Virus record (IMG/VR): IMGVR_UViG_3300023242_000001
Location: 12,296-76,295 of that record
Origin: a virus
Direction: 5' to 3' (one strand)
Length of the DNA: 64,000 nt
A program made the translations under genes and the position numbers. This document shows, in pieces, positions 37,136-62,160 of the stretch (the first letter of the stretch is position 1; the number at the start of each line of letters is the position of its first letter). The notes beneath the pieces were generated by a model. It worked only from the letters and a program-made list of their open reading frames with translations, did not search any database and was not told the origin of the DNA.

Positions 37136-37733
37136 GTCGTTCCTCTTCAGGGTTCAGTTGAGACGCCCCATACTGCCCAGGGCCCGCCTTGTTTGGGAAT
37201 CCCCCGTTGATCAGCGCGCGGGCGTTGTCGAAGTCGCGCTCGCAGGAGAGCCCATGGGTACGGGCGTAGTCAGCAACTGCTGCCAGTTTTTCTGCTCGGT
37301 CAGAAGCGAGTCCAAGCACGTCGGCCAACAGACCGATGGCGTCAGGCCCTGGCGTGACTGCATACTGAGTGCCGGCATCTGGACAGGCTTCACGGGCGCG
37401 GGTGGCAGCGGCGCGCGCGGCGTCGCGCAGCCGGCCAGACTCCACACCAGCACGAGCAGCAGCAGCTGCATTCGCGTCAAGAAGGGCCTGGGTGGTGGTG
37501 GCATTTTCTGATTTGGCATTTTCAAGGTCCTTCTCGGTTTGGCGGTTGGATTGTTCTTGTGCAAGGGTTGCGGCGGCGGCGGCGGTGAGGCTCTGTTCGT
37601 AGGCCGCGGCGGCCCGGGCGTACGCGGCGCGCTCGTTGGCCAGGCTGATCTGGGTCCAGGCGGAGAAGACGGACAGCGCCACGATCGCAGCGGCGTAAAC
37701 CCAGCTGGGCACGAGGTCGAAGATCCTGGTCAT
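37104..37733 (-). CDS. i-spanin (Rz-like)
   Basis: N-terminal TM followed by an Ala-rich coiled coil; downstream of the endolysin. Confidence 0.75.
   Translation of the reverse strand: MTRIFDLVPSWVYAAAIVALSVFSAWTQISLANERAAYARAAAAYEQSLTAAAAATLAQEQSNRQTEKDLENAKSENATTTQALLDANAAAAARAGVESGRLRDAARAAATRAREACPDAGTQYAVTPGPDAIGLLADVLGLASDRAEKLAAVADYARTHGLSCERDFDNARALINGGFPNKAGPGQYGASQLNPEEERHEPQTGPQSR
37169..37204 (-). promoter_or_regulatory. Late-promoter motif upstream of the second structural module
   Basis: GGGGATTC-N22-AGTATG. Confidence 0.7.
37211..37519 (-). CDS. o-spanin (Rz1-like lipoprotein) embedded in the i-spanin gene
   Basis: LLLLVLVWSLAGC lipobox; Pro-rich; alternative frame. The start may lie further downstream. 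Confidence 0.75.
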   Translation of the reverse strand: MPNQKMPPPPRPFLTRMQLLLLVLVWSLAGCATPRAPLPPAPVKPVQMPALSMQSRQGLTPSVCWPTCLDSLLTEQKNWQQLLTTPVPMGSPASATSTTPAR

Positions 37734-38374
37734 GCAAACACCTGCAGGTTCTGGTTCCACAGCGCGACGCGCTCAGGCAGGCCGTTCGTGCCGCCGTTGA
37801 CCACAAGGCTCATGCGCTCGATGTCGCCGGCGTCGGCGATGGCGTTCAGGTCTTTGTCCGCCCAGAACCAGCCGGCGCTGAGCATGGCGTTCACGGGCAG
37901 CAGCAAGCGCTCGGGGTGGTTCACGAAGTCCTCGCCAATGGCTGCGCCGCACCGGCGGTGATTCGCCAGGCCCGTCAGCTGCTTGGCGCCCATGCCGCGG
38001 TGCCGCCACCCGTCGCCGGGCTTCACGTTGCCCAGGTTCTTCAGGCCCCATGGCCCACCGTAGATGGTATTGGCGATCGCCTGCTGGTCCGCGCGCTGGC
38101 CGGGCCGGCGACCGAACCGCTGCGCGTCTTCGACAGAGATGCGGTGGCGACCGAACCGCTTGATCAAAGCCTCGGTGCTGTAGCTGAGGTTCTCCTCAAG
38201 CTTGGAGAGGCCCTGCGACTCCACGCCGATCTGGGCGAGGAACCCGGCGATGCGGCGCGGCGACGTGATCGAGTAGGCCTTGCAGGTCCCCTGGATGAGG
38301 GGCAGAAAAAGCTCGGTATTCGCGCGGGTGGCGCCGGTTGCGCGCTGCACCTGGTCGGCGCTAAGTGGGATCAT
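37730..38374 (-). CDS. GH19 (chitinase-like) endolysin
   Basis: FLAQIGVES, EENLSYS, DGWRHRGMGAKQLTG, SAGWFW and VNGGTNGL motifs. Confidence 0.92.
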   Translation of the reverse strand: MIPLSADQVQRATGATRANTELFLPLIQGTCKAYSITSPRRIAGFLAQIGVESQGLSKLEENLSYSTEALIKRFGRHRISVEDAQRFGRRPGQRADQQAIANTIYGGPWGLKNLGNVKPGDGWRHRGMGAKQLTGLANHRRCGAAIGEDFVNHPERLLLPVNAMLSAGWFWADKDLNAIADAGDIERMSLVVNGGTNGLPERVALWNQNLQVFA

Positions 38375-38595
38375 TGTGGCTCCTTTGCTTGGACATCTTT
38401 GAAATTTTTGTCATCCCAAGAAGCAAACCCGATGTACGCAGCCACGACAGCACCCGAAAAAGCGTAAAACGCGCCTGCCACCGCGCCCAACTGCTCGGAC
38501 TCGGTGTAGAGCAGCAACACCGGGAAGGCCAGCCCTGCCAGCAGCGCCAGCCACGCCATGCGGCGGCGGTTTTTCCAGCGGTCCTTTTCGTTCAT
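38371..38595 (-). CDS. Putative holin (two TM)
   Basis: MNEKDRWKNRRRMAW; two hydrophobic segments; directly upstream of the endolysin. Confidence 0.65.
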   Translation of the reverse strand: MNEKDRWKNRRRMAWLALLAGLAFPVLLLYTESEQLGAVAGAFYAFSGAVVAAYIGFASWDDKNFKDVQAKEPQ

Positions 38596-39062
38596 GGCAG
38601 CACCTCGAAAATGTTGGAATCTGCCGACACCCGCTTGGCGGGCAGGATCGCCAGCGTCGGCTGAATCGTCCATGTGGTCGTGATGACGTACCGGCCCGCG
38701 TCGAGCGATGGGCATTTGCCGTCTGTCCACCACTTGAGCGTCAGGCCACGCGGTAACTTTGAATCTGGTGTGTACTTTGCGGACCCGGTGGCCGTGCAGT
38801 AGACAACCCAGCCCGAACCCACGGCCCCTGTTTCTTCCCAGGTTTTCACAGTCGCCACCCACGATCCATCGAAACTGCGATGGGTCGCCCGATCAACAAG
38901 CATCGGCACAGACTCACCCACGCGGGCCGGGCCAGCGTTGACCGAATGCACCTCGAACCAGAATGAGGCGGGCCACAGTTGCGCGGTGCCGTAAGCCAGC
39001 AGCCACAGGGCCATCAGCACAAACAGTTTGGTGTTTTGCAGGGTTTTGGCTAGGGCTTTCAC
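38592..39062 (-). CDS. Membrane-anchored periplasmic protein
   Basis: GTGA-coupled start; N-terminal TM; beta domain with two Cys. Confidence 0.55.
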   Translation of the reverse strand: MKALAKTLQNTKLFVLMALWLLAYGTAQLWPASFWFEVHSVNAGPARVGESVPMLVDRATHRSFDGSWVATVKTWEETGAVGSGWVVYCTATGSAKYTPDSKLPRGLTLKWWTDGKCPSLDAGRYVITTTWTIQPTLAILPAKRVSADSNIFEVLP

Positions 39063-39301
39063 AGGCGCAACCAATTTCTGAGAGCGCCGGTCAACACACC
39101 CCAACTCGCCACCGATGCAGCGATCAGGCCCAGCCCGGTGATGATCCATTTCGAGGCCCGGCCCAATGCGACCCAGCCGCGCCACGCTTGCGCCATCGCG
39201 TGCAATGCGGCCTTGTCCTCGGCTGAAAAGTCAGGAGCTGCTTGCAAGTGTTGCTCCAGCCGGTTGAGCAACTGGTCGGCTTGAGGTTTGGTGTAGCTCA
39301 T
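39059..39301 (-). CDS. Small membrane protein (holin/antiholin-like)
   Basis: One C-terminal TM; lysis-cassette context. Confidence 0.55.
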   Translation of the reverse strand: MSYTKPQADQLLNRLEQHLQAAPDFSAEDKAALHAMAQAWRGWVALGRASKWIITGLGLIAASVASWGVLTGALRNWLRL

Positions 39302-39781
39302 TCACTTCGCTCCTTTCGTCAGCAGGTCATCCAAGTCCTGCGGGCTCAGGCTTGCGGGATCTTTCATCTCCAGCGCGGCGGCGATTGACTCGCTGCAAAA
39401 CCAGCGGTCTAGGCGCCCGCGCACGAACGCGGAAAGCGTCTTGATGAATGCGGCCACCCCGAGGTAGTCATAGGGCTCGCCTTCATGCTCAATGAACCAC
39501 CAGCGCGCTCGCAGCTCGGCGGCGTAGTCGTACTGGGGCAGGGGCTTCACGTCCCAGCGGCCGCTGAAAATGTCGATCGACTTGAACCGCACACCGCCGT
39601 CTCGGGCGCTGCTGCTGGCGCATTCGGCCATGCCGTCTTTGATCTCAAACACCAGCTCGTTGTGGCTGTAGAGCGCGGGCAGATACGGCCACCAGCGGCG
39701 CGGTTTCAGGTGGCAGATCAGCCAGTGCGTAGTGCGGTGCAGCAGGCCGGTGGCGGGGCCTTTGTAGCTGGCGAGGTGCAT
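39302..39781 (-). CDS. Permuted papain-like (YiiX/NlpC-P60) enzyme
   Basis: YSHNELV (His) precedes PYDY and WFCSE (Cys). Confidence 0.7.
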   Translation of the reverse strand: MHLASYKGPATGLLHRTTHWLICHLKPRRWWPYLPALYSHNELVFEIKDGMAECASSSARDGGVRFKSIDIFSGRWDVKPLPQYDYAAELRARWWFIEHEGEPYDYLGVAAFIKTLSAFVRGRLDRWFCSESIAAALEMKDPASLSPQDLDDLLTKGAK

Positions 39782-40374
39782 CATGGAGCGGCCACCTCCG
39801 TCAGCACAACCTCGGGCCGCACGATGACGGGCGGCGGCTGGGTCAGCACGATAGGCGCTGGCTGCGTGACGATGACAGGATCAGGCGCAGTCACAACAGT
39901 CGGCGCGGCAGTGGCGTCCCCGCTGTTCGCGCCGGAGTTGCCGCTGATGGTGGTGATAGCCCCCGGCGCCTGAATCTGCCCCGCAAGGCTCACAAAACCG
40001 GCAGTCGTTGCAATGCCGGTGCGCGCTGCGTTGTCGCTGCTGCGCATGGACACATCGGCATTTGCCCGGATGCCGTAAATCTGCGTCAGGCCGGGAACAA
40101 GCACGCTGGCCCATTGCAGCGCGGCGTTCGGTGCGGGTGCTGCGATCTGCTGCGTCGGGCTTGCGGCGCCCTGCCCCAATGCCAGCGCCATGACGGCCGC
40201 GACCCGTGCCGCGCTGTCACCGGCGGCTGCAATGTCGGCCATCGCTTTGTAGCGGGCGGCGTCGGCCTGCCCCTTTGCCACGGCAACAGCTTGCTGTGTC
40301 TGCGCGTATTGCGCGTAGTCGGCAGATGCGCATCCGGTCAGTGCGAGCGCGATTATGGCGAGCAAGGTTTTCAT
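39781..40374 (-). CDS. Lipoprotein
   Basis: MKTLLAIIALALTGC lipobox; Pro/Val-rich C-terminus. Confidence 0.75.
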   Translation of the reverse strand: MKTLLAIIALALTGCASADYAQYAQTQQAVAVAKGQADAARYKAMADIAAAGDSAARVAAVMALALGQGAASPTQQIAAPAPNAALQWASVLVPGLTQIYGIRANADVSMRSSDNAARTGIATTAGFVSLAGQIQAPGAITTISGNSGANSGDATAAPTVVTAPDPVIVTQPAPIVLTQPPPVIVRPEVVLTEVAAP

Positions 40375-40811
40375 GCGAGGGGCCTTTCTTCGGTTGTGAC
40401 AGGTGAGTCCAGAATCACAAGCGCCCGCCCAACAGCCAGCAAGCCAGCGGCTTCAAGCATCTGCACGCCTGCGCGGGTGTCAGGCCGGTCCAAGTCCACA
40501 AACGCCGCTGCGGCCAAGTCGGCCTGATTCGCCCGCAGTGCAGCCGCTTGGGCGCGCTCTGCCATCGGCGCTGCCGGGTTGTCCAGGCCCGCGATTTCAA
40601 GCGCCACTTTTTCGGCGGTGGTGAATCGGTTTCGGAAAGCCAACCGGGTGATGCGTCGGCTGGGCAGCAGTGTCAGCGCACCATCGGCAAAGCTGTACTC
40701 ACCCAAGCGCAGCACATCAAAGTCAGCAGGCGCGTCAATGAAAGTGTCCGGCCCGGTGTAGGCGTCGGTGGCGGTGCCTGCGATTCGGTTGTTTTGGATT
40801 AGGAGTTTCAT
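40371..40811 (-). CDS. Tail-fibre-associated (assembly-like) protein
   Basis: ITRLAFRNRFT..E...FVDL...GLL..GRA..IL pattern, common after fibre genes. Confidence 0.6.
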   Translation of the reverse strand: MKLLIQNNRIAGTATDAYTGPDTFIDAPADFDVLRLGEYSFADGALTLLPSRRITRLAFRNRFTTAEKVALEIAGLDNPAAPMAERAQAAALRANQADLAAAAFVDLDRPDTRAGVQMLEAAGLLAVGRALVILDSPVTTEERPLA

Positions 40812-40820
40812 GGTTTGCCT

Positions 40821-41717
40821 TTAGATGTCGCAGCGCAGGGTGCCGACAAACCACGTCCAGCCGGGGCCGGTATTCGCAACCGAGAACGGCGTAACCATGG
40901 GCATTGCCACCGGGTAGGTAAGGCCGTTGGATGCCAACACGCCTGATGCAGCCGACTGAAACATCGACACAGCCGACCCCGCCCGACGGGTCGCAATGTT
41001 GACGCCAGCAGAGGTGCCGTTTACAGTGCTCAGGCCGACCACGATGTATGAGCCAGCTGCGTTTAGTCCGGCGATTGCGCCCAAGGTGCCAGCAGATAGC
41101 GCGTACTGAGGCGCGGCGCGCATGGTGGTCAACGCGGTGGAAGATGCGGCAATAGCGGCGAGTGCTGTGTCGCTGTTAAATATCGACATCTTCGCTGTAC
41201 TGGATGCAGCCACCGCTGTCATGGCTGTGCTGGATGCAGCCACCGCAGTCATCGCCACGCTCGATGCAGCCACCGCTGCCATGGCTGTACTGGATGCAGC
41301 CACCGCTGTCATGGCTGTGCTGGATGCAGCCACCGCAGTCATCGCCACGCTCGATGCAGCCACCGCTGCCATGGCTGTGCTGGATGCAATCACCGCTGTC
41401 ATCGCTGTGCTGGATGCAATCACTGCATTCATCGCCACGCTCGATGCAGCCACCGCTGTCATGGCTGTGCTGGATGCAATCACCGCTGTCATCGCTGTGC
41501 TGGATGCAATCACTGCATTCATGGCCGTGCTGCTGGCGGCCACCGCTGTCATCGTCACATTGTTCGCCGTGATTCTTCGGACCTGCCCCGGAATCTCCAG
41601 CAGAACCTGCAATTCTCCCCGGCGCGAATTGTTCACCAGCAGCGTTTGCAGTTGCGCACCTGTGATGGTGCCGTTTTCGAGCGCATTCAACATGCGCATT
41701 GCTGAAATCATTGCCAT
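40821..41717 (-). CDS. Tail-associated protein with 10-aa repeats
   Basis: 12 copies of AM[TNA]AV[AI]ASS[TV]. Confidence 0.75.
   Translation of the reverse strand: MAMISAMRMLNALENGTITGAQLQTLLVNNSRRGELQVLLEIPGQVRRITANNVTMTAVAASSTAMNAVIASSTAMTAVIASSTAMTAVAASSVAMNAVIASSTAMTAVIASSTAMAAVAASSVAMTAVAASSTAMTAVAASSTAMAAVAASSVAMTAVAASSTAMTAVAASSTAKMSIFNSDTALAAIAASSTALTTMRAAPQYALSAGTLGAIAGLNAAGSYIVVGLSTVNGTSAGVNIATRRAGSAVSMFQSAASGVLASNGLTYPVAMPMVTPFSVANTGPGWTWFVGTLRCDI
41196..41555 (-). repeat. 30-bp tandem repeat x12 with a 90-bp higher-order period
   Basis: Units such as ATGGCTGTGCTGGATGCAGCCACCGCTGTC on the plus strand. Confidence 0.95.
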
Positions 41718-41726
41718 TGGGTGTCC

Positions 41727-42635
41727 TTATATTTTGATGACGGTGACGGGCCAAGCGGCCCGAACGGCGGCGTTGGTAGTGGCTGCTGCCGCGCTGGCAT
41801 TGGTGAGCATGATGGTCACCGTGTCGGCTGCGCTGACCCAAGCGTGATATGACAGACGCGCCGTGTCTGTTGCGGTGCTGCCCAATTGATCGGGCGGTGT
41901 AGCGATCACCCGATCGCCAATGAACGCACCTGCGACGGCGCCGGTGAATGAGGCGCTGGAGAGTGCGCCAAGTGTGGCGATGGCGCATGTTGCGCTGCCG
42001 GTCAATACTTTGGCGGCAAAGCTGCTGGCAAACCGCGCATCAAACTCCAGCTCATCGAACCGGGTCACCGTGTCATATGAATCAACAAGCTCCCAATTTG
42101 CGGCTTCCAGCAGCCAGCAGCCCGAAGCAGTTGCGAAACAGGTTTCGTCGTCGTCAATCTCGGTACTGCCTGCGGTCCAGACGAACAGGCCCAAGCCTTC
42201 GACAGTGATTTGATCGCCAGTGGCTGGGGTGAGGCTGCGTAGGCTGGCTCGGTTGTCGTAGGTGACGTATGCGGCGCCCGTTTTGATGACAGTCCAGCTT
42301 GCACTCACGCCGGGCGTGGCCGTGGTCACGTTTGCCAGCGTGGCGTTGAGCGCCCAAAACTGGCCCGCGTGCGCCACGCTGGCCGGCATGGCAAGGGCGC
42401 CTGTCAGAGCACTCCAGTTACCTTTGAAGTTTGCAGCTGGCAGAGCAACCGCAGCGGCGGCATTGGCAGAGGCAGCAGCAGCAACAGCGCTCACTTCCCG
42501 CGCATCGACGTTTACCTCCAGCGCGTTGGCTTGCGTGGCAAAGAGGGGCAGCGCGCCCAGCAACGCATCGCCCTGCTCGGCAAATGTGGCCGGGTTGTTG
42601 CGCTGCGGCGGTTGGGGTAATGCGGTAATTGGCAT
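41727..42635 (-). CDS. Tail fibre / tail-tip protein
   Basis: MPITALPQPP...TF anchor-like N-terminus; position after the tape measure. Confidence 0.6.
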   Translation of the reverse strand: MPITALPQPPQRNNPATFAEQGDALLGALPLFATQANALEVNVDAREVSAVAAAASANAAAAVALPAANFKGNWSALTGALAMPASVAHAGQFWALNATLANVTTATPGVSASWTVIKTGAAYVTYDNRASLRSLTPATGDQITVEGLGLFVWTAGSTEIDDDETCFATASGCWLLEAANWELVDSYDTVTRFDELEFDARFASSFAAKVLTGSATCAIATLGALSSASFTGAVAGAFIGDRVIATPPDQLGSTATDTARLSYHAWVSAADTVTIMLTNASAAAATTNAAVRAAWPVTVIKI

Positions 42636-42636
42636 G

Positions 42637-43548
42637 TCAGGTCATTCCTTCAATTTCTGCGCGGAAATTGCTTGAGCTAAAGTTGTCGATGGTCAGACTC
42701 CAGTCGGCCAAAAACCCGTAAACGATCAGCGAGCCGAACGCGGTGGAGCCAATCCACACGACGTTGGTGGCTCGGAACCGGCTGACGTTTTTGACCACCG
42801 CATCGACGTTCTCGCGCAGCACCATGACGTTCAGGCTCATCTTTTGGCTGTAAGCGCGCTCGATCAATTGGATGTTCCCGAACGCATCGGGCTCTTTGCG
42901 CGAAAAGTCCCGAATCGAAACGCTGGCGCCGTATTGCGTGTCGCCCACTTCGGTCACAAGCCCGACAACCAGCATCCCGAGGGACACAGTGCCACCCGTG
43001 CGGGTGATGACGATGGTCAGCACGCCGTCGCCGTAAGCGGGCAAATTGAGCAGCGCGGCGTCGATCAGGTTGGTGATGACAAGCTCGGACTGCTCGTACA
43101 CCGGCTCATAAAAATACTGATACCAATCGCCCACGTTGACGCCTGACGTGAGGTTGGTGCTGGCGCTGTAGACGGTTTCGCCACCGGCCACAAGCGTCAC
43201 GCTGACGGTTGCAGCACTCAGGCCCAACAGCGCCAAGCTGTTGATGCGGCCCGGCGCGAGCACGATGGTCATGCTGTCGGCCACGGTGGTGACAGTGCCG
43301 ATTTTTTGGTCGAACATCGCCCAGCGGTTTGTCGGGGCAACAGCGAGCCATCGGGTCGGGGCCAGTTCGGGCAGCGTGGCGTTCACGCCGGCGATCACGT
43401 TCTCGTAAATCTGGTGCGTGGTGGTGCGGATCACGCGCTGGCCGACCGTGTAGCTGGTGGCAGCCACCCACGCCGGGTGGTCGGCCTCGGGCACGCTGCT
43501 GCTTACCAGCCGGGCGTCGTTGATCGCGGTGGGTCGGATGAATTTCAT
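42637..43548 (-). CDS. Distal tail / tail-tip protein with a CBM-like N-terminal segment
   Basis: WVAATSYTVGQRV segment; directly after the tape measure. Confidence 0.6.
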   Translation of the reverse strand: MKFIRPTAINDARLVSSSVPEADHPAWVAATSYTVGQRVIRTTTHQIYENVIAGVNATLPELAPTRWLAVAPTNRWAMFDQKIGTVTTVADSMTIVLAPGRINSLALLGLSAATVSVTLVAGGETVYSASTNLTSGVNVGDWYQYFYEPVYEQSELVITNLIDAALLNLPAYGDGVLTIVITRTGGTVSLGMLVVGLVTEVGDTQYGASVSIRDFSRKEPDAFGNIQLIERAYSQKMSLNVMVLRENVDAVVKNVSRFRATNVVWIGSTAFGSLIVYGFLADWSLTIDNFSSSNFRAEIEGMT

Positions 43549-49849: not shown

Positions 49850-49851
49850 AA

Positions 49852-50196
49852 TCAGGTCTTCGGTTGGTTGTCGGACCAGTGCTTCATGAACACCCGGTCA
49901 AGCATTTGCAGAATGCGCAGATACTTGCTGCGCAGGTCCGCTTGCGCAATCCCCACCAGCTGCAAATAAGCCAGAACCTCAGAGATTTGCAGCGGTGTGG
50001 GCGAGCTGTGCCCCATGGGGCGCGCCTGATCCAGCGCCCGAAAAGCCTTCAGCAGCTCTTGGTCGCGCGAGTGAAGTTTGGGGATGGCGCGCAGCGGCGC
50101 CGGGGTCACCCCCGTCTGCTTGGCGCGCTCCTGAAACGCCTTGATGTGAGGCCCCCACCGGAGCTCCCACACCAAGTACGCGTTCAGCCGTTTCCC
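49852..50196 (-). CDS. Tail assembly chaperone, -1 frameshift extension (gpT-like)
   Basis: The -1 frame after GGGAAAC reads KRLNAYLVWELRWG... Confidence 0.8.
   Translation of the reverse strand, partial: GKRLNAYLVWELRWGPHIKAFQERAKQTGVTPAPLRAIPKLHSRDQELLKAFRALDQARPMGHSSPTPLQISEVLAYLQLVGIAQADLRSKYLRILQMLDRVFMKHWSDNQPKT
49920..49954 (-). promoter_or_regulatory. Late-promoter motif upstream of the mini-ORF and tape measure
   Basis: GGGGATTG-N21-AGTATC. Confidence 0.65.
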
Positions 50197-50657: not shown

Positions 50658-51884
50658 TTAAGCTACAACCGCGCGGGTGATGCGGATGCCGCGGTTCGTG
50701 GCTGCGTTGAAGAAGGCAGAGAACGGCAGCGACAGCATGGTGTCGTCGGCCCGCCCGCCTGGGTTCATGCCACCGTCGGTGTAGTTGATCTTGTCAAACT
50801 CGATCAGGTAGCCGTTGCCGGCGCTGTCGGCCACACCCAGCACAAGGCTTGAGGTCGTTCCCTGGAGCCACTTGTTGTAGTAGGTCGCGTTCTCGACGTA
50901 CATCTCGATGTTGCCGCTCAGTTCCAACTCGCCCAGGCCCACATCAGCGTTGCCGAACACACCGATGGCCTTCTGGCCCCGCGCGTTGTTGTTGATGCTC
51001 AGGCTCACCGACTTGATGAAGCTGGAGCTGCCCGTCAAGATGCTCTGGCCACCTTCGTAGATGGCACCCACGTCGGTCACCGAGTTCATCACCTCGAACG
51101 GCTGCGACGCAGCGGGCGTGCCCGGCAGGCGGGTGGTGGGCTGAATCGTGTGGCCCATGCCCGTGAAGCCGAACGAGCCGGTGATGATGGAGCCCACTTC
51201 CATGGACATCTCCATCGTGTTGGGGCGCATGCCGGTGTAGGTGAGCACCTGGCTGATGTCGGTCATCAGGTATTCCATGGCAAACGAGCGCGCAACCGAG
51301 CCGTTGGACATGGTCGACTGGCTGATCGCGTAGCCCGCAGCGGCGGTGATGCCCAGGCCGGGTGCGACGATGGGCGTGCTGGGGTCCAGCGTGATGGTGG
51401 TTGCCGTGGTCGAGAGCACCTTGAACCAGCGGTTCGCGAAGTAGGCCCGCACGGCCGCAGTGGCCGCCACTGGGGGCACCACCTTGAACCAGGAGCCCAC
51501 AGCCAGGGTGGTGAATGCGGACGCGCCCGTCAGCGCCACAGCCGCTGTGATGGTGCTGGCTGCGGTGGTGGCGCCAAAAACGGCACCCAGGCCGCCAACG
51601 CCGTGGTGAGCGTACGCCGAAGAGAGCACGCCCTCGAGGAACGGGTCGTATTCGCGGGCAGACAGCTCGAAATTGAAGCCGCCGTCGACATCCAGGTCGG
51701 TGCGGGTCTGGCCGGTGGAGAGGCGGTCAGCGCGGATCTCTTGGGACTTGACCGTGGCCAGCGACGCCTTGAGGCTTGGCGTTAGCATGCGCAGGTTGAG
51801 CGCGTTGCCCGCGCCGGGAATCACACCCTGAGTGGCTTCTTGGATGTAGCGAAGTTGCCCGAAGGCGGATGAAGCAAATGGCAT
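50658..51884 (-). CDS. Major tail tube protein
   Basis: LRYIQE, SQEIRADR and GGFNFELS motifs; synteny. Confidence 0.8.
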   Translation of the reverse strand: MPFASSAFGQLRYIQEATQGVIPGAGNALNLRMLTPSLKASLATVKSQEIRADRLSTGQTRTDLDVDGGFNFELSAREYDPFLEGVLSSAYAHHGVGGLGAVFGATTAASTITAAVALTGASAFTTLAVGSWFKVVPPVAATAAVRAYFANRWFKVLSTTATTITLDPSTPIVAPGLGITAAAGYAISQSTMSNGSVARSFAMEYLMTDISQVLTYTGMRPNTMEMSMEVGSIITGSFGFTGMGHTIQPTTRLPGTPAASQPFEVMNSVTDVGAIYEGGQSILTGSSSFIKSVSLSINNNARGQKAIGVFGNADVGLGELELSGNIEMYVENATYYNKWLQGTTSSLVLGVADSAGNGYLIEFDKINYTDGGMNPGGRADDTMLSLPFSAFFNAATNRGIRITRAVVA

Positions 51885-51916: not shown

Positions 51917-51951
51917 CAAACTTGCACACCCCGTCCGAGAACACAATCCCC
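51917..51951 (-). promoter_or_regulatory. Late-promoter motif upstream of the tail tube gene
   Basis: GGGGATTG-N21-AGTTTG; intergenic. Confidence 0.75.
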
Positions 51952-52359
51952 CTACGCTCGGTCCAGTGAGAACGGCGCCAGAATGCCCACCTTGTGCCAG
52001 CCCAAATGCTGGGTCGGCGTGAGCCTCTCTGGAAAGTCGAAGCGCGCGCCACCCAGGCGCCGGGGTCGAAACAGCTCCTCAAGCTGGTCCATCAAGTCGT
52101 CGGCGCGCCCGGTGCCTTCGCCCTCGCGCACGAACACTCGCACCACCAACGCACCGGTGGCGCGGCCCATCGGGCGCTCCCCCAGCGCCGCTGTGCTGGC
52201 GCCGTAGAAGCGCACCTCGGTGTCAACCCACACATCGCCCACGTTGGCAAGGTCTGGCTGGGGCCCGTTCTCGAAGAAGATCGGCACGGCCCCTGGCGCG
52301 ATCGCCCAGTCCTGTAGCGCGGTGTTCACCGCCGCACGGAACGCTTTGCCTGTGCTCAC
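51952..52359 (-). CDS. Tail terminator-like protein
   Basis: Size and synteny; FENGP...GEGTG. Confidence 0.65.
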   Translation of the reverse strand: MSTGKAFRAAVNTALQDWAIAPGAVPIFFENGPQPDLANVGDVWVDTEVRFYGASTAALGERPMGRATGALVVRVFVREGEGTGRADDLMDQLEELFRPRRLGGARFDFPERLTPTQHLGWHKVGILAPFSLDRA

Positions 52360-54285: not shown

Positions 54286-54305
54286 GCGGTAAGGCCCTGC
54301 GAAAC

Positions 54306-54530
54306 TTACTCGGTGAACTCGACCAACTTGCCCGTTTCAAGCTGGGCTCGCACGAAATCGTCGATCACATGTTGCTTGGGCTCGGAGGTGAACAGGACGT
54401 TGGTGTAGAGGTGCAGCATGTTTCCGTGCACCGACTGTAGCCAGACCTTCTTGGGGGCCGCAACCTCCGGGGCCGCAGCTTGAGGCGCTTCGACTTCGGG
54501 GGCGGGGGCGGGCTTGGCAGTTTTGCTCAT
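54306..54530 (-). CDS. Small hypothetical virion protein
   Basis: Follows the capsid gene. Confidence 0.55.
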   Translation of the reverse strand: MSKTAKPAPAPEVEAPQAAAPEVAAPKKVWLQSVHGNMLHLYTNVLFTSEPKQHVIDDFVRAQLETGKLVEFTE

Positions 54531-54552
54531 GGTGTTCTCGTGGTGTGCTCGT

Positions 54553-54588
54553 GAAAAAGAGGCGGAGCGCTTCCGCGGCCCGCCTCTC
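54553..54588 (-). terminator. Intrinsic terminator after the major capsid gene
   Basis: Minus strand AGAGGCGG...CCGCCTCT followed by TTTT. Confidence 0.75.
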
Positions 54589-54601
54589 TGGGTGAGACCT
54601 A

Positions 54602-55783: not shown

Positions 55784-55815
55784 TTTGGTGCTCCTTGTCA
55801 GCTGTTGGGGGTGGG

Positions 55816-56301
55816 TTAGGCGGTGCGCTCGATGATGCCGGTCTGGCCCACCGCGCCTGTGCCAGTGAACGCGACGACGCGCCACTTGTAGACGATGCCG
55901 GTTGCAGCCGCAGTGGCCAGGCAGACCCGGGGGTTGCCTGGGAGCGCGGTGCCGCGAGCGGACACCGTGCCTGTCACCACATAACCACCGATGGTGATCA
56001 CGCCGGTGCCTGGGGTGGCCTGCAAGCCGTCAAAGGTCACCTCGACGCGGGTGCCAATGGCGTCCCGCACGGAGCCCAGGTTGAAGCCATCTTGGGGGGC
56101 AAGGTCATCAGCCACCGAGAGCACGCCCTCGATCTCGTTGCCCACCGCGCACAGGCCAAACTGGCTGTCCGCGACGAACTTGACGAACTTGCCGTTGTCG
56201 AGGCGACCCAGCTGGTTGCCCACACCGGCGCCATCGGCGACGCGCGCGGTCTTGTTGGGAAGGAAGGGGTTGATGGTCACGCCCATCTGAAATTTCGCCA
56301 T
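55816..56301 (-). CDS. Head decoration / cement protein
   Basis: Gly/Thr-rich; between the protease and capsid genes. Confidence 0.6.
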   Translation of the reverse strand: MAKFQMGVTINPFLPNKTARVADGAGVGNQLGRLDNGKFVKFVADSQFGLCAVGNEIEGVLSVADDLAPQDGFNLGSVRDAIGTRVEVTFDGLQATPGTGVITIGGYVVTGTVSARGTALPGNPRVCLATAAATGIVYKWRVVAFTGTGAVGQTGIIERTA

Positions 56302-56316
56302 GTGGATCTCCTTGGA

Positions 56317-56904
56317 TTACTTGGGGCGGGTTGCGTCAATACGGGCGCGTCGGAAGCCGTCAACCGACTCCTTCGCACCCCCGTTGTCGGCTGCGGCAGA
56401 CGACGAAGCCGCCACACCACCCGCCTTGAACTTCTTGGCGAAGTTGGCCTGCACCGAGGTGAACTCGGCAAGCAGGGCTTCGTCTGTCGTCGCGGCCACG
56501 AAGGCGGAGCCCCCCAGCGCAACGTGCATGTTTTTCACAACGCCCTGAACGATGGGGCGCATCTGCTCCAGCGTGGTGTTGAGCGCAGCCATGGCTGCGG
56601 TGGCGCCTTCGCCCGCCTGCTTGAGCGCAGCGAGCTGCACCGAGACGTTGATCGTGGAGGCGGTGGCCTCGGCCAGCTGCTCCTTGAGCATCTGGATGCG
56701 CGCGTCGACCGTCTCGGCGACAGGCGCCACCGGTGCGGCGTCAGCCACAGGTGCGACAGGCGCAGCATCTGCGACGGGCACAACGGCCAGAGCTGCGGCA
56801 GCCAAAGCGGCAGCAGCGGCAATTTCGGTGGGGTCGCCGGCCTCGGGGAGGACGCCGCCAGCGGCGAGCGCCGCGATGGCTTGCTCGGTGAGCGCGTGTT
56901 TCAT
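56317..56904 (-). CDS. Nested in-frame scaffolding protein (Nu3-like)
   Basis: Internal ATG (MKHALTEQ) with AAAGGA SD and its own late-promoter motif. Confidence 0.65.
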   Translation of the reverse strand: MKHALTEQAIAALAAGGVLPEAGDPTEIAAAAALAAAALAVVPVADAAPVAPVADAAPVAPVAETVDARIQMLKEQLAEATASTINVSVQLAALKQAGEGATAAMAALNTTLEQMRPIVQGVVKNMHVALGGSAFVAATTDEALLAEFTSVQANFAKKFKAGGVAASSSAAADNGGAKESVDGFRRARIDATRPK

Positions 56905-57789
56905 TGAAGAGGGTCCTTTCGGGGAATTCGCACCATACTTGGGCGACTTCTTTTCAGCGTCAATCCCCCCCTGCACTTTGCTCAGGAGCTCGTCGAAACT
57001 GGATATCCGGTCGGCCAGCCCAATGTCCACCGCCAACTGGCCAAGAAACACCCGGCCCTGTCCCATCTTCTGGTCTGCCTGGATGTAGGGCACGCCGCGC
57101 GAGTCGGCCACGTGCTGGGCGAACATGCCGTACAGCTGATCAAGTTGGCCCTGCACCTCGGCCTTGGCTTCTTCGCTCAGCGGCTCGTACGGGTTGGCCA
57201 GCGCCTTGTACTTGCCCGCGCGCATGACAGTGGTCTTGATGCCCTCTTGCTCCATACGCTTGCTCTGCTCACGGTGCACCATCAGCACGCCGATGCTGCC
57301 CGCCTCGGCCATCTTGCCCAGCGTCACGCTGCGCGCGGCCGAACCCAGCCAGTAGGCGGCCGAGTTCATGGCGCTGCCGGAGAAGGCGTGCACCGGCTTG
57401 ACCTTGGAGTCCACCAGCGCGATCAGCTCGGCGGTGTCCGACACGCCCATGGTGGAGCCGCCGCCGGAGTTGACGTCGAGCACGATCGACTTGATGTCGG
57501 GGTCGTTGGCGGCGGCGATCAGCGCCTCGCGAATCTCCGGGTAGCCGGTAGCGCCCAGGTACTCGTTGATCCACGACGCGTTGTTCACCAGCGAGCCGTC
57601 GATGGCGATCACACCCACCTGGCCCTGCTTGCTGAGCAGGCGCGGCAGGGTCCGCTCACTCGACATTCCAGAGTAAGCGCGCTTCTCGCCCTCGGCCAGC
57701 ATGTCCGGCGTGAGCCGCTCCAGCTGCGCCAGGAAGGATTTGAGCGACTCCTCGGTGCCCGCCCAGAATTTGAAGTCAGAGATGTGCAT
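56317..57789 (-). CDS. S49 prohead protease with C-terminal scaffold
   Basis: LDVNSGGG, SAAYWLGS, GSIGV and AGKYK motifs. Confidence 0.9.
   Translation of the reverse strand: MHISDFKFWAGTEESLKSFLAQLERLTPDMLAEGEKRAYSGMSSERTLPRLLSKQGQVGVIAIDGSLVNNASWINEYLGATGYPEIREALIAAANDPDIKSIVLDVNSGGGSTMGVSDTAELIALVDSKVKPVHAFSGSAMNSAAYWLGSAARSVTLGKMAEAGSIGVLMVHREQSKRMEQEGIKTTVMRAGKYKALANPYEPLSEEAKAEVQGQLDQLYGMFAQHVADSRGVPYIQADQKMGQGRVFLGQLAVDIGLADRISSFDELLSKVQGGIDAEKKSPKYGANSPKGPSSMKHALTEQAIAALAAGGVLPEAGDPTEIAAAAALAAAALAVVPVADAAPVAPVADAAPVAPVAETVDARIQMLKEQLAEATASTINVSVQLAALKQAGEGATAAMAALNTTLEQMRPIVQGVVKNMHVALGGSAFVAATTDEALLAEFTSVQANFAKKFKAGGVAASSSAAADNGGAKESVDGFRRARIDATRPK
56934..56968 (-). promoter_or_regulatory. 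Late-promoter motif inside the protease gene
   Basis: GGGGATTG-N21-AGTATG (TTGACG-17-AAGTAT). Confidence 0.75.
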
Positions 57790-57790
57790 G

Positions 57791-59320
57791 TCAGGTTCCT
57801 TGATTGGCGGGGCCCTTGGGCTGCTCGGGGGTTTGTTTTTTGCCGTCGCGAGGACCCCCCGGCGTTGCCGAGGTGTTGGAAAACGGGTTCACCGCGTTGG
57901 CGTCAACGGCTGACGGGTCACTCCCCGCGCCGTTGCGGAAGAAGGTGCCCGAGAGCTTTGGCGCGCCTGGCGGAGGCAGGCGGCCAGTGAGCTGCAGCGA
58001 CGCCTCCTCGTCAGAAATCATGCCAATGGAGAGCTGGTCCAGGACGCGGCTCTGCTTCATGGACCTGAACGCCTCCAGCTCGGCGTCCGGTCTGAGGTCA
58101 ATCCGGTCGAACTCGAACTTCACGTAGCAGTCGACGCCCATCAAGCGCACGCCCAGGGTGAGCGCGCGTGAGATGAGCGAGTTCACCTTCTGCTGCAGGC
58201 CCTCGCAGTAGCGCAGGAACAAGAGCGTCTCGGTGGAGGCGATGTTCTGGCTCCCCGCGCCGTGGCCCAGCACGGCCGGTGGCGCCTTGGTGCCTGTGGC
58301 CACCTTGGAATTGACCATGGCGCTGAGCGTTTCGTATTCGCGCGACAGCGTGACGTTGCCGCCGTTCTTGTACTCGAAGGCGACCGTGTCCATGTGCACG
58401 AGCGCGTCATCGGGCTCCAAGCCGTTGATGGTCGACTCCAGGGCCGAGATGGTTTGCTGGAGGTACTCCTGGAGCTTGTCGGGGTCGCCTAGCACGTCCG
58501 GCGGAAGGCCCTTCCTGAACTTCTCGCTGTCGATCGTGGCGTCAAGCCGGGGGTGCAGCGCGCGCTTGATCACCCGGCGAACGTCGTTGGTGAATTCGGT
58601 GTCAGCAAGCACCGCCTGCAGGGCCGACTCCATGGGTGAGTCGCTGTAGGCAGTGAGCAGATCCTGGTCCAGGCTCTCGTAGAAGAACGCCGGGATGTCC
58701 AGGTCGATCTCCTGTCCGTTGACCTTCTGCACCGGTGCGGCGTAGCCGGTGCCGTCGTCGATGAACTCGATCTGGCTGGTGGAGATCGGCACGATCCGGT
58801 TGGGCAGGCGCGCGCGGTCCAGCACAAGCTCTGCCGCACACGAGCCCTCGATGCGCAGCTCCTTGGTCAGCATCTCGGCCAGCGCGTGCAGCGAGGACAC
58901 GCCGGAGAACCCGTCGTTGTAGTCGGTGAGGTAGTTGAGCCGGCTGATCACCTCCTGCGCCGCGCGGGTGGCCTCCGGGTTGATGGTGCCATCCAGGTTG
59001 TAGCCCACCGCGTGGAAATTGCGTGTCACCACCAGGCGCACGTAGGCGTAGACGCTGGCCGAGATGTCCGGGCTCACCTGCGCCAGGTCGCGGATGATCT
59101 TCTTGGTGCTGATGCCGTTGCGCAGCGTCAGGAGGTCAAGGTTTGCCGTGCGCCGATCGGTCTGGCTCAGCTTCTGGTCGCCGGAGCTGGTCGCCGTGCG
59201 CTTGCTCATCGACGGCAAAGCCTGCGCCTTGTTGGTGACCTTGGGGTCGACCAACGGCGTCAGTTTGGTCGCAGCGAGGGGGCCGCTGAGGCCGAGGAGA
59301 GCTTTGATTTTGCCGAGCAT
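57791..59320 (-). CDS. Portal protein
   Basis: 509 aa; between TerL and the protease. Confidence 0.8.
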   Translation of the reverse strand: MLGKIKALLGLSGPLAATKLTPLVDPKVTNKAQALPSMSKRTATSSGDQKLSQTDRRTANLDLLTLRNGISTKKIIRDLAQVSPDISASVYAYVRLVVTRNFHAVGYNLDGTINPEATRAAQEVISRLNYLTDYNDGFSGVSSLHALAEMLTKELRIEGSCAAELVLDRARLPNRIVPISTSQIEFIDDGTGYAAPVQKVNGQEIDLDIPAFFYESLDQDLLTAYSDSPMESALQAVLADTEFTNDVRRVIKRALHPRLDATIDSEKFRKGLPPDVLGDPDKLQEYLQQTISALESTINGLEPDDALVHMDTVAFEYKNGGNVTLSREYETLSAMVNSKVATGTKAPPAVLGHGAGSQNIASTETLLFLRYCEGLQQKVNSLISRALTLGVRLMGVDCYVKFEFDRIDLRPDAELEAFRSMKQSRVLDQLSIGMISDEEASLQLTGRLPPPGAPKLSGTFFRNGAGSDPSAVDANAVNPFSNTSATPGGPRDGKKQTPEQPKGPANQGT

Positions 59321-59325
59321 CTGGG

Positions 59326-59361
59326 CAAACTAGCCCACAAACCTACCCCCTGTGAATCCCC
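59326..59361 (-). promoter_or_regulatory. Late-promoter motif upstream of the portal (near-leaderless)
   Basis: GGGGATTC-N22-AGTTTG; ATG 5 nt downstream; no SD. Confidence 0.7.
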
Positions 59362-61085
59362 GTCCCCTGGCGCACCGGTTTCGGGCCTGTCAGCTTGAAG
59401 GTGCTCACCAGGTTGGTGCCCAGCACCATGGCCCCGGCCGCCACGCCCCGCATTTGGGCTGCCACCCACAGGTAGCCCAACGAATGGTGCATGTGGTCCT
59501 GGCCCTTGGAGCTTTTTTGCCAGATGCTGGTGAACTCGCCGTTGCGCAGGGTGGCGCTGGCGCGCTTCATGTCGGTCAGGTGCTGCTTGACCATCTGCCA
59601 GTCTTCCGTCCTGCGGATGCGAACCCGCTTGTCTCGGATCTCCACAAGCAGGCGGTCGAACAGCTGGTTCCTGCTGACGCTCACTTGGCGCACGCCCTCG
59701 ATGGCACTGTCGAAGTCCGCCACCTTGTCCCGCACCGAGTACACCTCCATGCCCTGCCTGCTCACGTAGGTGGCGCCATACAGGCTGGGGTCCTCGGCGC
59801 TGAGCGACATGATCAGGTCGGTGTAGGGCTGCAGGTCGCTCACCACGACGCTCACCCGAAAGCTCGCCTTCAGGCCCCAGTACCTCGCGCGAAAGTTCTT
59901 CAACGGCACGCGCTCGACGTGCACCACCACCAGTTCGCCGTCCGGCCCCACGCGCCCCACTGTGAAATGGCATATCTGGCCCAAATCGATGCCCATCACA
60001 TGGGCGCCAGAGCTTGGCGTCTCCGAGTCGAACCCGATCGCCTCGATGTCCGCCTCGGTCAGGCCATCTTCGGCGTTGGCCGCCGGCTGCCCCAGTGAGA
60101 ACTGCTGAAACTTGCTCTTGCTGGCGTACTGCGTGGAGGCAAGGATCAGGTCGGCCAGCGTCACCACGTTGGGCGCGTCAAACGGGCTGACCTGGTACCC
60201 CGCTGCCGTGTGCCCCTCGGTGGGGTTCTCGCACACCCACTCTCGGTGCTCGGGCTGCAGGCTGGTTTCAACCCCGCAGTGGGGGCAGAGCAGCTTCGCC
60301 TCTTTGTAGCGCACTTGGTGCAAGTTTTGCTTGGTGATCTCGTCCAGGCCTTTGCGCCACCCCGGCACACTCACATGCTCGTAGTAATCGGGCAAAAACG
60401 TGTGGTCGCAGTGCTCGCACCGGCACATGTTGAAGTGCCTGCGGCTGGCGTTGAACGCGGTATCGATAGGGTCGCCCGGAAACGTGGGCGTGGACAGCGA
60501 GATGCGGTGCTTGTAGGGCGAGTGGATCAAGCGGCTCGTGAAGTCGCTCAACACCTCTTGGTCACAAAAGCTCATCTCGTCGGCGATGATCAGGTCCAGC
60601 GAGGTCGAGATGGCGGCGTTGCCCACCGCGGCCCCCTTGAAGTAGACCAACTTGCCCGGGCCAAACGACTTGATGTCGGCGCGGTCGATGTCGTCGCGCG
60701 AGATGGCGTAACGCAGCGCCGCGCTGCCCTGGACGATTGGGTTGAAGCGGGTCTGGGCGTAACTGGTAGCAAAGCTGGCCGAGGGCAGAACGTACCCCAC
60801 CGCGTAAGCGCCGGGCATCACCATCATCAGGCCCGCTGTCATGCGCAAAGACATCTCCGAGATGCCTGTTTGGGCCGACTTCCTGATGACAAGGTGCTGC
60901 GAGTCGTCGCCGATGATCTTGCTTTGGTACTCGTGCCCGCTGAAGGAGAAGGGCTTGCCGTTGATGAAGGTGTTGCGCTCGATCCAGGCGGCCAGGTCCT
61001 TTCGCCCCAGCTTGTTGATGGAGCCTTGCCGAATGCGCGACAGGTGGTCGGACAGGAACCGGGGCGTTGTCGGGGCGCGGCTCAC
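59343..61085 (-). CDS. terL: Terminase large subunit (lambda GpA-like ATPase)
   Basis: KSAQTGISE, IIADE, LSTPT, CEHC/CPHC and nuclease GIDLG motifs. Confidence 0.9.
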   Translation of the reverse strand: MSRAPTTPRFLSDHLSRIRQGSINKLGRKDLAAWIERNTFINGKPFSFSGHEYQSKIIGDDSQHLVIRKSAQTGISEMSLRMTAGLMMVMPGAYAVGYVLPSASFATSYAQTRFNPIVQGSAALRYAISRDDIDRADIKSFGPGKLVYFKGAAVGNAAISTSLDLIIADEMSFCDQEVLSDFTSRLIHSPYKHRISLSTPTFPGDPIDTAFNASRRHFNMCRCEHCDHTFLPDYYEHVSVPGWRKGLDEITKQNLHQVRYKEAKLLCPHCGVETSLQPEHREWVCENPTEGHTAAGYQVSPFDAPNVVTLADLILASTQYASKSKFQQFSLGQPAANAEDGLTEADIEAIGFDSETPSSGAHVMGIDLGQICHFTVGRVGPDGELVVVHVERVPLKNFRARYWGLKASFRVSVVVSDLQPYTDLIMSLSAEDPSLYGATYVSRQGMEVYSVRDKVADFDSAIEGVRQVSVSRNQLFDRLLVEIRDKRVRIRRTEDWQMVKQHLTDMKRASATLRNGEFTSIWQKSSKGQDHMHHSLGYLWVAAQMRGVAAGAMVLGTNLVSTFKLTGPKPVRQGTGIHRG

Positions 61086-61540
61086 ACCTCGCCCTCCACG
61101 ATCTTTTCCCAGGTTTCGTAGGCAAGTTGTCTGGTGTTGCTGTCAGGCTGCGCGTCGAGGTACTCGATCAGCAGCCCCTCGATCTTTTTGAACCGCTCGG
61201 ACGTGTAAAGGTCCCCCTGCACCTTCACCAGATTAGCCAACGCGCTGGACAGGCTGTTGGCGACTTGGGCCATTTGGTTGGCGGGGGTATCTGTGGATGC
61301 CAGCACTTGGTTCTGCAGGCTCTGCAGAGAAACCATCTGCAGCACGAGCTCGCGCACAAGGTCTGTGTCCTGCAGCGACTTCACCGGCAGGCGCGCCTCG
61401 ATCTCGGCACGCAGGCTGATCAGCTCGTGCGGCTCAAGGCCTTCCAGGCTGACCTTGGGCTTGGTGGGTGCTAGCGCTGGCGCTGGGTCGCGGATCGAGA
61501 ACGGATCCGGGGGAATCTTGTCGGTCATGGGCTGTGGCAC
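61082..61540 (-). CDS. Putative terminase small subunit
   Basis: Helical; coupled upstream of TerL. Confidence 0.55.
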   Translation of the reverse strand: MPQPMTDKIPPDPFSIRDPAPALAPTKPKVSLEGLEPHELISLRAEIEARLPVKSLQDTDLVRELVLQMVSLQSLQNQVLASTDTPANQMAQVANSLSSALANLVKVQGDLYTSERFKKIEGLLIEYLDAQPDSNTRQLAYETWEKIVEGEV

Positions 61541-61574
61541 GCTTGGTTGCGCGCTCTTGTTTTGCGTGTGGAGA

Positions 61575-62117
61575 CTACGCCACCTGAGTCAGAAGATCAA
61601 TCGTGCTCCAGTTCAAGTCCGGCATGTCCGGCCACAGCCAGTTCCCCTTCAGCTTGTTCTCCTGCGCCGTGATCACTTGCAGGTTGGTGTGGGTGTGCAG
61701 CCCGCGAACCAGGTCCCCGATCCCCGAGATAGGGACTGCGTGGTCGACCACATAGACGCCCCAGCCCAGCGTGTTCATCAGGGCCGCGCCCAGGTAGATC
61801 CGCACCACCTCGTCAAGGTCGCTCCAGACGCAGTAGGCCTGGGCAATGTCGTGCATGCGCTGGTCTTGGTCCCTGATGCTTCCCTTGCGGGGCTTTGCCG
61901 GTCGCGCGCGGTTTCTGAAGGCCCGCATCGCCTTGTCGTAGGGGTCAAGCGCGTGGTAGCTCGCGCTCGCCCTGGCGCGGTTGGTCGCGGCATCCTCGGG
62001 CTTGCGTTTTCTTGGGGTTTTTGGCTGTTTTGGGCTCTGGTCGGGGGCGATTTTGGTCGGAAACTGCTCGACCTCGGGCGGCTTTGGACGTGCCGGTGCC
62101 TTGGATTTGAGGGCCAT
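61575..62117 (-). CDS. HNH endonuclease next to the terminase
   Basis: VDHAVP...GLHTHTNLQVITAQENKLKGN. Confidence 0.85.
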   Translation of the reverse strand: MALKSKAPARPKPPEVEQFPTKIAPDQSPKQPKTPRKRKPEDAATNRARASASYHALDPYDKAMRAFRNRARPAKPRKGSIRDQDQRMHDIAQAYCVWSDLDEVVRIYLGAALMNTLGWGVYVVDHAVPISGIGDLVRGLHTHTNLQVITAQENKLKGNWLWPDMPDLNWSTIDLLTQVA

Positions 62118-62124
62118 CTGCGCC

Positions 62125-62160
62125 CAGACTGGCGCCTACGGCAGTGTTTTCGCAATCCCC
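62125..62160 (-). promoter_or_regulatory. Late-promoter motif upstream of HNH/terminase (near-leaderless)
   Basis: GGGGATTG-N22-AGTCTG; ATG 7 nt downstream; intergenic. Confidence 0.75.

Follow-up and report, generated by a model that had tools for sequence, protein, structure and literature searches.

Genome organization and distribution of the motif

The window analyzed here is a stretch of 64,000 nucleotides (nt), bases 12296 to 76295 of the complete 76,295-bp IMG/VR record IMGVR_UViG_3300023242_000001, and its late genes are accompanied by six copies of a bipartite DNA motif, GGGGATTS-N21/22-AGTHTS, whose likely role as a set of late promoters is the subject of this work. The record, which ends in a 21-bp terminal repeat, has a G+C content of about 64%. 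Its early and replication arm is encoded on the plus strand, fills the 12.3 kb outside the window and positions 1 to 28,100 within it, and carries genes for a SNF2 helicase, a primase, a DnaQ-like exonuclease, MazG, a dNMP kinase, DNA polymerase A, SbcCD, a ligase, and ThyA. An integrase gene (29627-30763, minus strand) is found 3' of this arm and adjoins a tRNA-Cys gene (31618-31694, minus strand) where the early arm meets the late one, the probable location of attP. The HK97-like late operon runs on the minus strand from 62,117 down to 31,747 and encodes, in this order, the large terminase, the portal protein, a protease-scaffold protein, the capsid protein, a tail protein of 408 amino acids (aa), a tape measure protein of 2062 aa, and the distal tail proteins. 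The 408-aa protein (50658-51884) matches a minor tail protein in PHROGs and is read here as the tail tube. The phage is a temperate siphophage, with a Comamonadaceae-like betaproteobacterium as its probable host.

The pattern scan of the window returned six matches to the motif, all on the minus (late) strand and none on the plus strand, with a spacer of 21 nt at three sites and of 22 nt at the other three. The original prediction, made from the sequence of the window, had listed the same six sites with this orientation and spacing, and had proposed a scan of both strands against shuffled sequence; 100 dinucleotide-preserving shuffles gave no match. The remaining 12.3 kb of the record held no further copy, and allowing one mismatch in either box added none in the complete 76.3-kb genome. 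Taken alone, GGGGATT occurs 9 times in the window (about 4.9 expected), and six of the seven occurrences on the minus strand are followed by AGTHTS at the fixed distance. The lone half-sites are at 10912 (minus strand), 49350 (plus strand), and 53356 (plus strand): the first two had been described before as lacking the AGT element, which they do, while the third had been overlooked. A weight matrix trained on relatives only, with this genome excluded, gave the six sites scores of 17.6 to 29.0, against 11.8 for the next best site on either strand; a score of 16 was reached at least once in only 6 of 30 shuffled genomes. A full-text literature search for the motif returned only unrelated papers.

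The six copies, all on the minus strand, are numbered here along the late operon and described by their putative −35 and −10 hexamers. Copy 1 (62125-62160, TTGCGA-18-CAGTCT) is intergenic, between the HNH gene and a 180-aa gene preceding the small terminase gene, and the ATG of the first late gene (62117) lies about 2 nt after the predicted start point. Copy 2 (59326-59361, TTCACA-18-TAGTTT) overlaps the 3' end of the large terminase gene (its last codons and the stop), and the portal ATG (59320) coincides with the predicted start point. Copy 3 (56934-56968, TTGACG-17-AAGTAT) is inside the 490-aa protease-scaffold gene (56317-57789); downstream of it come an in-frame nested scaffold start (56904, 195 aa, with its own ribosome-binding site) and then the capsid gene. 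Copy 4 (51917-51951, TTGTGT-17-AAGTTT) is intergenic, directly after a TAG stop and 5' of the 408-aa gene (ATG 51884). Copy 5 (49920-49954, TTGCGC-17-AAGTAT) is inside the tail-chaperone frame, about 180 nt 5' of the tape measure ATG (49733). Copy 6 (37169-37204, TTCCCA-18-CAGTAT) is inside the 3' end of an open reading frame (ORF; 37104-37760) and precedes a distal module of five structural genes (ATG 37135). Three copies are thus within ORFs, one overlaps the end of a gene, and two (62125 and 51917) are intergenic, as had been proposed, and the claims of late-strand specificity and of placement at the heads of late gene blocks also hold. At five of the six sites, the exception being 49920, an ORF of 106 to 509 aa starts 0 to 28 nt after the predicted start point, and three starts with ribosome-binding sites are 24 to 28 nt downstream of it.

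The stop codon of the upstream gene is often a TAG fused to the G run of the motif (TAGGGGATT), so that the same bases serve to end the preceding gene and to form part of the promoter box. Examples are found in the window (51951-51954), in the related genome G012 (17271), and in the related fragments L009 (5284 and 6070) and L024 (9906).

Conservation of the motif in related phages

Searches of viral and metagenome collections with the portal protein retrieved fragments and prophages with 58 to 68% portal identity, and the use of a conserved early protein as query added three further near-complete genomes. Relatives bearing the motif at equivalent positions showed portal identities of 58 to 71%. 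In the fragments, a relaxed form of the motif had 30 occurrences on the late strand against a single one on the opposite strand. The five complete or near-complete genomes (G000, G001, G010, G011, and G012; about 406 kb) gave 28 sites, every one of them on the late strand; one further match, in an early region, was judged an obvious chance occurrence. Across the clade, each genome carries 4 to 7 copies, before the small terminase gene, before the portal gene, inside the protease-scaffold gene 5' of the nested scaffold start, before the tail tube gene, inside the chaperone gene 5' of the tape measure gene, and in the distal tail modules. The original prediction had proposed a check of conservation in related phages, and the element is kept at the same positions in distant relatives.

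The equivalents can be followed copy by copy. Copy 1 has counterparts 5' of the terminase genes in G001, G011, G012, and L021. Those of copy 3, inside the protease-scaffold gene, are found in G001, G011, G012, L019, L021, and L022; the nested scaffold start is ATG, TTG, or GTG in the relatives, and both the start and the promoter are kept. Copy 4 is matched in G001, G011, G012, L009, L021, L022, and L025, and copy 5 in G001, G010, G011, L009, L019, L021, L022, and L025; at these copy 5 sites the rare ATT and TAT codons are retained. The counterparts of copy 6 are one or two copies in the distal tail regions of the relatives.

The spacers vary freely from copy to copy, and spacers and flanks have fully diverged while the boxes persist. 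Moreover, the copies embedded in genes use rare codons (ATT, 11% of Ile codons; TAT, 9% of Tyr; GGG, 17.5% of Gly), and the retention of such codons points to selection on the DNA word and not just on the protein. The motif is under selection at the DNA level.

A megablast search with the head region against 50,697 phage records gave no match, and neither did a portal search of species-representative genomes. The protein search among isolates recovered only distant phages, with 31 to 37% portal identity (Achromobacter phage JWF, Vibrio phage SHOU24, and Pseudomonas phage PMBT3). The first 45 kb of JWF (31% portal identity), which holds its structural genes, contained no copy of the motif, and the signal is therefore clade-specific.

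Architecture of the putative promoters

The sites were aligned by anchoring on the boxes and numbered with the last T of AGTAT as −7. The logo of the 34 unique sites reads G−40 G−39 G−38 G−37 A−36, T−35 T−34 (G/T)−33 (A/C)−32, any base, and T−30, followed by 17 (sometimes 18) variable bp ending in C−14 C−13, and then any base at −12, A−11 G−10 T−9 A−8 T−7. The discriminator after the −10 box is G+C-rich, and nothing is conserved upstream of −41. The register is exactly that of a sigma70 promoter, with TTSNNN-17/18-NAGTHT at 6 of 6 sites in the window and TTGACT-17-nAGTAT in the clade. To this layout the motif adds the GGGGA box, placed against the −35 hexamer, and the CC at −14/−13. Each position of GGGGA is conserved in 27 to 34 of the 34 unique sites, from lineages with 56 to 65% G+C.

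The match of the six copies to TTGACA/TATAAT is poor: counted by hand, they have 5 to 8 of the 12 consensus bases, and all of them fail a consensus scan with a threshold of at least 9/12. The exact spacing and poor hexamers agree with the earlier reading of the copies as weak sigma70 promoters. The same reading had spoken of an invariant GGGGA box and of an AGT core. GGGGA is close to invariant; the AGT core varies in the wider clade, where CAATGT, TAGTGT, and TAATTT occur at equivalent sites with A−11 and T−7 retained, a form of variability that favors recognition by ordinary sigma70.

No consensus sigma70 promoter was detected on the late strand across the 31 kb of this genome or across 16 kb of the late region of G001. 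In G001, the first copy is located in a 119-bp divergent gap heading the late operon, where a promoter must exist. Taken together, the motif is real and conserved, and we consider it very probably a promoter.

Two near-consensus promoters form the divergent switch beyond the head of the late operon. One, an early or maintenance promoter, is on the minus strand (63078-63106, TTGACA-17-TACAAT, 11/12), and the other is a rightward early promoter on the plus strand (63217-63246, GTGACA-18-TATAAT, 11/12). The start of a 142-aa gene with a helix-turn-helix (HTH) domain (62664-63092) follows the former within a few bases, so that its message would be leaderless like that of lambda cI; the gene overlaps the HNH gene, and both are absent from all relatives examined.

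A predicted leaderless portal message

In every lineage where the signal was found, the portal ATG follows the −10 box by 6 to 7 nt. This was seen in G000, G001, G011, and G012 and in nine portal-bearing fragments (L008 to L012, L019/L027, L020, and L022 to L026). Such a gap leaves no room for a ribosome-binding site, and its conservation provides independent support for AGTAT as a −10 element. The spacing implies that the portal mRNA would be leaderless. Two near-leaderless messages, those of the portal gene and of the first late gene, had been anticipated; the expected distance to the ATG is seen for both and, in the case of the portal gene, throughout the clade. A portal message kept leaderless across relatives would be unusual for a phage of Proteobacteria. 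The closest likeness is lambda PRM, where transcription of cI starts on the A of the start codon; unlike that case, the leaderless gene here would be the portal gene, and the arrangement is kept throughout a clade.

In the relatives, many late leaders carry, between the predicted start point and the ribosome-binding site, a repeat rich in A (an ARN-type tract, for example ACAAGAACAAGAA). It is found at G001 28791 and 39179, G011 38663 and 48439, G012 12191, 17271, and 19408, L009 13331, and L019 2493. The repeat is not enriched in the window (5 occurrences versus 2.3 expected). It may be a translational enhancer or a binding site for Hfq or S1.

Search for host and phage regulators of known families

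The relative G001 is recorded as a provirus of an isolate genome, in a Variovorax boronicumulans-type chromosome. It adjoins a tRNA-Val gene and relA, the latter 100% identical to that of V. boronicumulans. Five Variovorax genomes (35.6 Mb) contained no exact copy of the motif, and three of them contained 17 copies with one mismatch, against 10 in the control. This lack of enrichment argues indirectly that the host has no regulon on this signal.

On the phage side, six-frame profile searches of G000 and G001 found no Sigma70_r2, Sigma70_r4, or Sigma70_r4_2 domain and no Mor protein (PF08765). Ogr_Delta (PF04606) and the antiterminator Q family PF06530, the one Q family searched for, were not found in the five genomes. 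Pfam and PHROG scans of the early proteins revealed no polymerase or sigma factor. The original prediction had likewise recognized no sigma, Q, or Ogr gene, and these searches extend its statement to Mor.

A model for late transcription and its alternatives

Given the lack of a recognizable regulator of known family and of a host regulon, the simplest mechanism is host sigma70 RNA polymerase helped by a phage protein at GGGGA. We therefore favor the view that the copies are weak sigma70 late promoters switched on by a phage activator bound beside the −35 hexamer, to which we assign a probability of roughly 0.6; a dependence on such an activator is likely. In this model, the host polymerase would read the TTGACT-like −35 hexamer and the nAGTAT −10 element, and hexamers matching at only 5 to 8 of 12 positions would be too poor to fire well unaided. 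An early or middle protein of the phage probably binds GGGGA at −40 to −36, against the −35 hexamer, and would recruit or stabilize the polymerase as class II activators do. All late blocks would thus be turned on together, with extra transcription for the genes whose products are needed in many copies (scaffold and capsid, tail tube). Transcription would begin 6 to 8 nt after the −10 box, giving a leaderless portal mRNA and a nearly leaderless message for the first late gene.

Several points weigh against this model. An activator at −38 leaves the CC at −14/−13 and the frequent G−10 T−9 unexplained. The consensus promoter at 63078-63106 directs transcription along the late strand, with no visible terminator between it and copy 1, so that some read-through expression of the late operon may occur without the motif. 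Others concern the proteins proposed below as its components. The winged-helix gene is tied to the box by co-occurrence alone, and the whole replication core co-occurs with it equally; its product could equally be a replication protein or a repressor. Moreover, a single box of 5 to 7 bp suggests binding by a monomer, an uncommon mode for winged-helix regulators. Finally, G+C-rich discriminators are typical of promoters inhibited by factors of the DksA/TraR type, which makes a positive role of the TraR-like protein doubtful.

A different explanation of the two boxes, which we regard as unlikely, is that a divergent phage sigma-like factor replaces sigma70 and reads both of them, in the manner of T4 gp55 or SPO1 gp34. 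A private specificity of this kind would fit the high conservation of both boxes and their absence from the host genomes examined, and two early proteins outside known families (5443-5751 and 7431-7871) are universal in the clade. Against it, the sigma domain searches of G000 and G001 were negative, the −35 element (TTGACT) is a good sigma70 hexamer, and the −10 element varies while keeping only A−11 and T−7, as with ordinary sigma70. The 286-aa candidate described below is beta-rich and not helical.

It is rather improbable that host sigma70 polymerase acts by itself, the copies being weak constitutive promoters that boost expression within the operon, with timing set by the number of genome copies or by relief from a repressor and with the extra bases tuning promoter kinetics. 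The exact geometry would be accounted for in this way, as would the nearly consensus −35 hexamers (TTGACT or TTTACT) of relatives with lower G+C. However, GGGGA is outside any sigma70 contact region, yet it is near-invariant and persists even where it entails rare codons. None of the six copies reaches the 9/12 of the consensus test, in which the early promoters score 11/12, and unregulated promoters for lysis and structural genes would harm the lysogen.

We give little credence to the reading of the signal by a host alternative sigma factor or another host DNA-binding protein. Host sigma factors can serve phages in this way, the late-region promoters of Pseudomonas phage YuA being reportedly dependent on sigma54, and no phage factor has been identified here. 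Sigma32 recognizes a −10 region CCCCATnT, to which the C-rich bases just upstream of A−11 bear a faint similarity. Nevertheless, exact copies are missing from the five genomes of Variovorax, the host genus of a relative, and one-mismatch copies are at control frequency; the spacing is unlike that of extracytoplasmic function (ECF) sigma factors, and there is no sigma54 GG-N10-GC. A host alternative sigma was rejected on the lack of enrichment in Variovorax.

Most improbable is that the elements are not promoters at all but peptide motifs, an RNA signal, or sites of recombination, packaging, or replication: three or four copies do fall within genes, with the same frame used in copies 2, 3, and 5 (all encoding Gly-Ile, followed by Lys-Tyr in 3 and 5), but two copies here and many in the relatives are intergenic, the genes containing copies are mutually unrelated and keep rare synonymous codons, the boxes are not complementary and the spacers show no covariation, and all copies point with transcription, 0 to 50 nt ahead of gene starts.

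Candidate readers of the GGGGA box

Proteins common to all five complete genomes are SNF2, the primase, the exonuclease, MazG, the dNMP kinase, DNA polymerase A, SbcCD, and a PDDEXK-like protein. Five small or uncharacterized proteins are also present in 5/5 genomes (5443-5751, 7431-7871, 13531-14391, 17467-17712, and 18326-18679). The original prediction had named five candidate genes, two of which (17467 and 18326) proved universal; the other three were less widespread, the one at 62664 being present in this genome only, the one at 15740 not being detected in G012, and the one at 9806 not being detected in G011.

The protein encoded at 18326-18679 (plus strand, 117 aa), just upstream of DNA polymerase A, is the only universal one with a recognizable sequence-specific DNA-binding fold. 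Its AlphaFold2 model contains helices at residues 5-20, 27-37, and 41-54 and strands at 57-60 and 67-70, with block-mean predicted local distance difference test (pLDDT) values of 85 to 94 over residues 1 to 70. Foldseek matched it to SmtB, LmrR/PadR, Zur/Fur, and BlaI (probability of about 1.0, E value of about 1e−2), and its Atlas neighbors are MarR- and Fur-like. The putative recognition helix (VSRNFVYGWL) is strongly conserved, and so is the C-terminal FPAWLEPRxLP. It matched no PHROG family, and a Pfam scan, made with the longer ORF 18029-18679, gave no match. By its predicted structure it is a winged-helix DNA-binding protein, an assignment made at the level of the fold only. The record G009 carries the winged-helix gene and no motif, but it is only the early half of a prophage and therefore provides no test of the association.

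We regard this winged-helix protein as a lead, and a tentative one, for the reader of the GGGGA box; it would be the most likely reader in the model, with the neighboring TraR-like protein possibly tuning polymerase kinetics. If so, it might represent a new kind of late activator in a clade of Comamonadaceae prophages, acting at a single GGGGA(TT) box immediately next to the −35 hexamer, where contact with sigma region 4 would hold it, probably as a monomer, and governing a regulon of 4 to 7 weak sigma70 promoters that includes the leaderless portal promoter; this fuller proposal is equally tentative.

The TraR/DksA-like protein (17467-17712, plus strand, 81 aa) has a putative C4 zinc finger (CxxC-N16-CxxC) and an acidic N-terminal tip (EADDLD). 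It matches phrog_54 (E = 1.4e−9) and, with 19.4 bits, falls below the 24.9 cutoff of Pfam zf-dskA_traR. It probably binds RNA polymerase and is a possible helper, not a DNA reader. Phage homologs of TraR bind the polymerase and not DNA (PMC9239242), and the protein here would be like them as a small predicted secondary-channel binder encoded among replication genes. In that study, no activation by lambda Orf73 was seen at the lambda lytic promoters examined (PMC9239242), which makes the role of the TraR-like protein in late transcription speculative.

Other candidates were set aside. The conserved acidic protein encoded at 13531-14391 (plus strand, 286 aa) has a disordered N-terminal region of 70 residues and a beta-rich core that gave weak structural matches to the recombination directionality factor of phiC31 and to the T4 gp32/RB69 single-strand-binding core. 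It has no match among Pfam or PHROG families and, judging from its model, is probably the single-strand DNA-binding protein of the phage. The 142-aa HTH protein at the head of the late strand (62664-63092) was dismissed as activator, being found only in this genome. The 317-aa protein with a C-terminal HTH (15740-16693) was given less weight: besides its lack of detection in G012, it is fast-evolving, its structural model is poor, and its Atlas neighbors are not informative.

Comparison with known late-gene switches

Phages P2 and P4 (Ogr and delta), Mu (C), and P1 (Lpa) have dispersed late promoters with a phage-specific box and weak core hexamers, which are served by a small phage activator together with host sigma70. 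The boxes known from these phages are a TGT-N12-ACA dyad near −55 in P2 and a region from about −30 to −55 for Mu C, or they replace the −35 element. Our set resembles those of P2, Mu, and P1 in its several dispersed putative late promoters sharing a phage-specific box. It differs from them in that a single asymmetric GGGGA abuts an intact −35 hexamer and in that no Ogr_Delta or Mor homolog was found (P1 Lpa was not searched for).

The position of the box, at about −38 and touching the site of sigma region 4, recalls class II activation as by PhoB at pho boxes, lambda cI at PRM, and lambda cII, and the candidate is a winged-helix protein. Unlike the single short box found here, the sites of PhoB, cI, and cII are repeats or dyads bound by dimers, and the candidate belongs to no described family. 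Compared by promoter layout, T4 middle promoters (MotA/AsiA) also combine a phage box in the −35 region with a sigma70 −10 element, but the MotA box is centered at −30 and replaces the −35 hexamer, whereas TTGAC is kept here with the box upstream of it. The scaffold expressed from an in-frame internal start in the protease gene is reminiscent of lambda C/Nu3, with the difference that it appears to have its own promoter here.

The features by which the known systems are defined are missing. ECF promoters have a GGAAC/AAC-type −35 element and a CGT/GTC-type −10 element about 16 to 17 bp apart. The 22 to 23 bp from GGGGATT to AGT are about 6 bp too long for this, and neither Sigma70_r2 nor Sigma70_r4_2 was found in G000 and G001. 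The aligned sites contain no conserved GG-N10-GC (TGGCAC-N5-TTGC) of the sigma54 type. There is nothing conserved upstream of −41 where Ogr or delta would bind, and PF04606 is missing from the five genomes. The −35 hexamer is retained, unlike at Mor/C promoters, and PF08765 was not found in G000 and G001. Six dispersed promoters are not the arrangement of a lambdoid Q system, and PF06530 was not found in the five genomes. By analogy, the system would function as the late promoters of P2, Mu, and P1 do with their activators, and as in class II activation beside the −35 hexamer, while belonging to none of these families.

To our knowledge, the switch to late genes has been worked out in only a few model phages, and most environmental temperate phages that we know of carry no recognizable Q, Ogr, Mor/C, or sigma gene. 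The present case provides a cis-element that is sharply delimited and has a clear logo, along with a short list of universal candidate readers, and the Variovorax provirus G001 suggests that the system may be experimentally accessible. In addition, the motif can serve as a marker for annotating late operons and for recognizing this phage clade in metagenomes.

Other features of the window

A terminator-like hairpin followed by a T run is located directly 3' of the major capsid gene (54562-54576, minus strand), a typical position for an attenuator; terminator-like matches overall were not above chance. The early arm encodes a DUF7220 protein (16672-16953, E = 1e−23) and a DUF7227 protein (3092-3793, E = 1e−87), the latter conserved in G001, G011, and G012.

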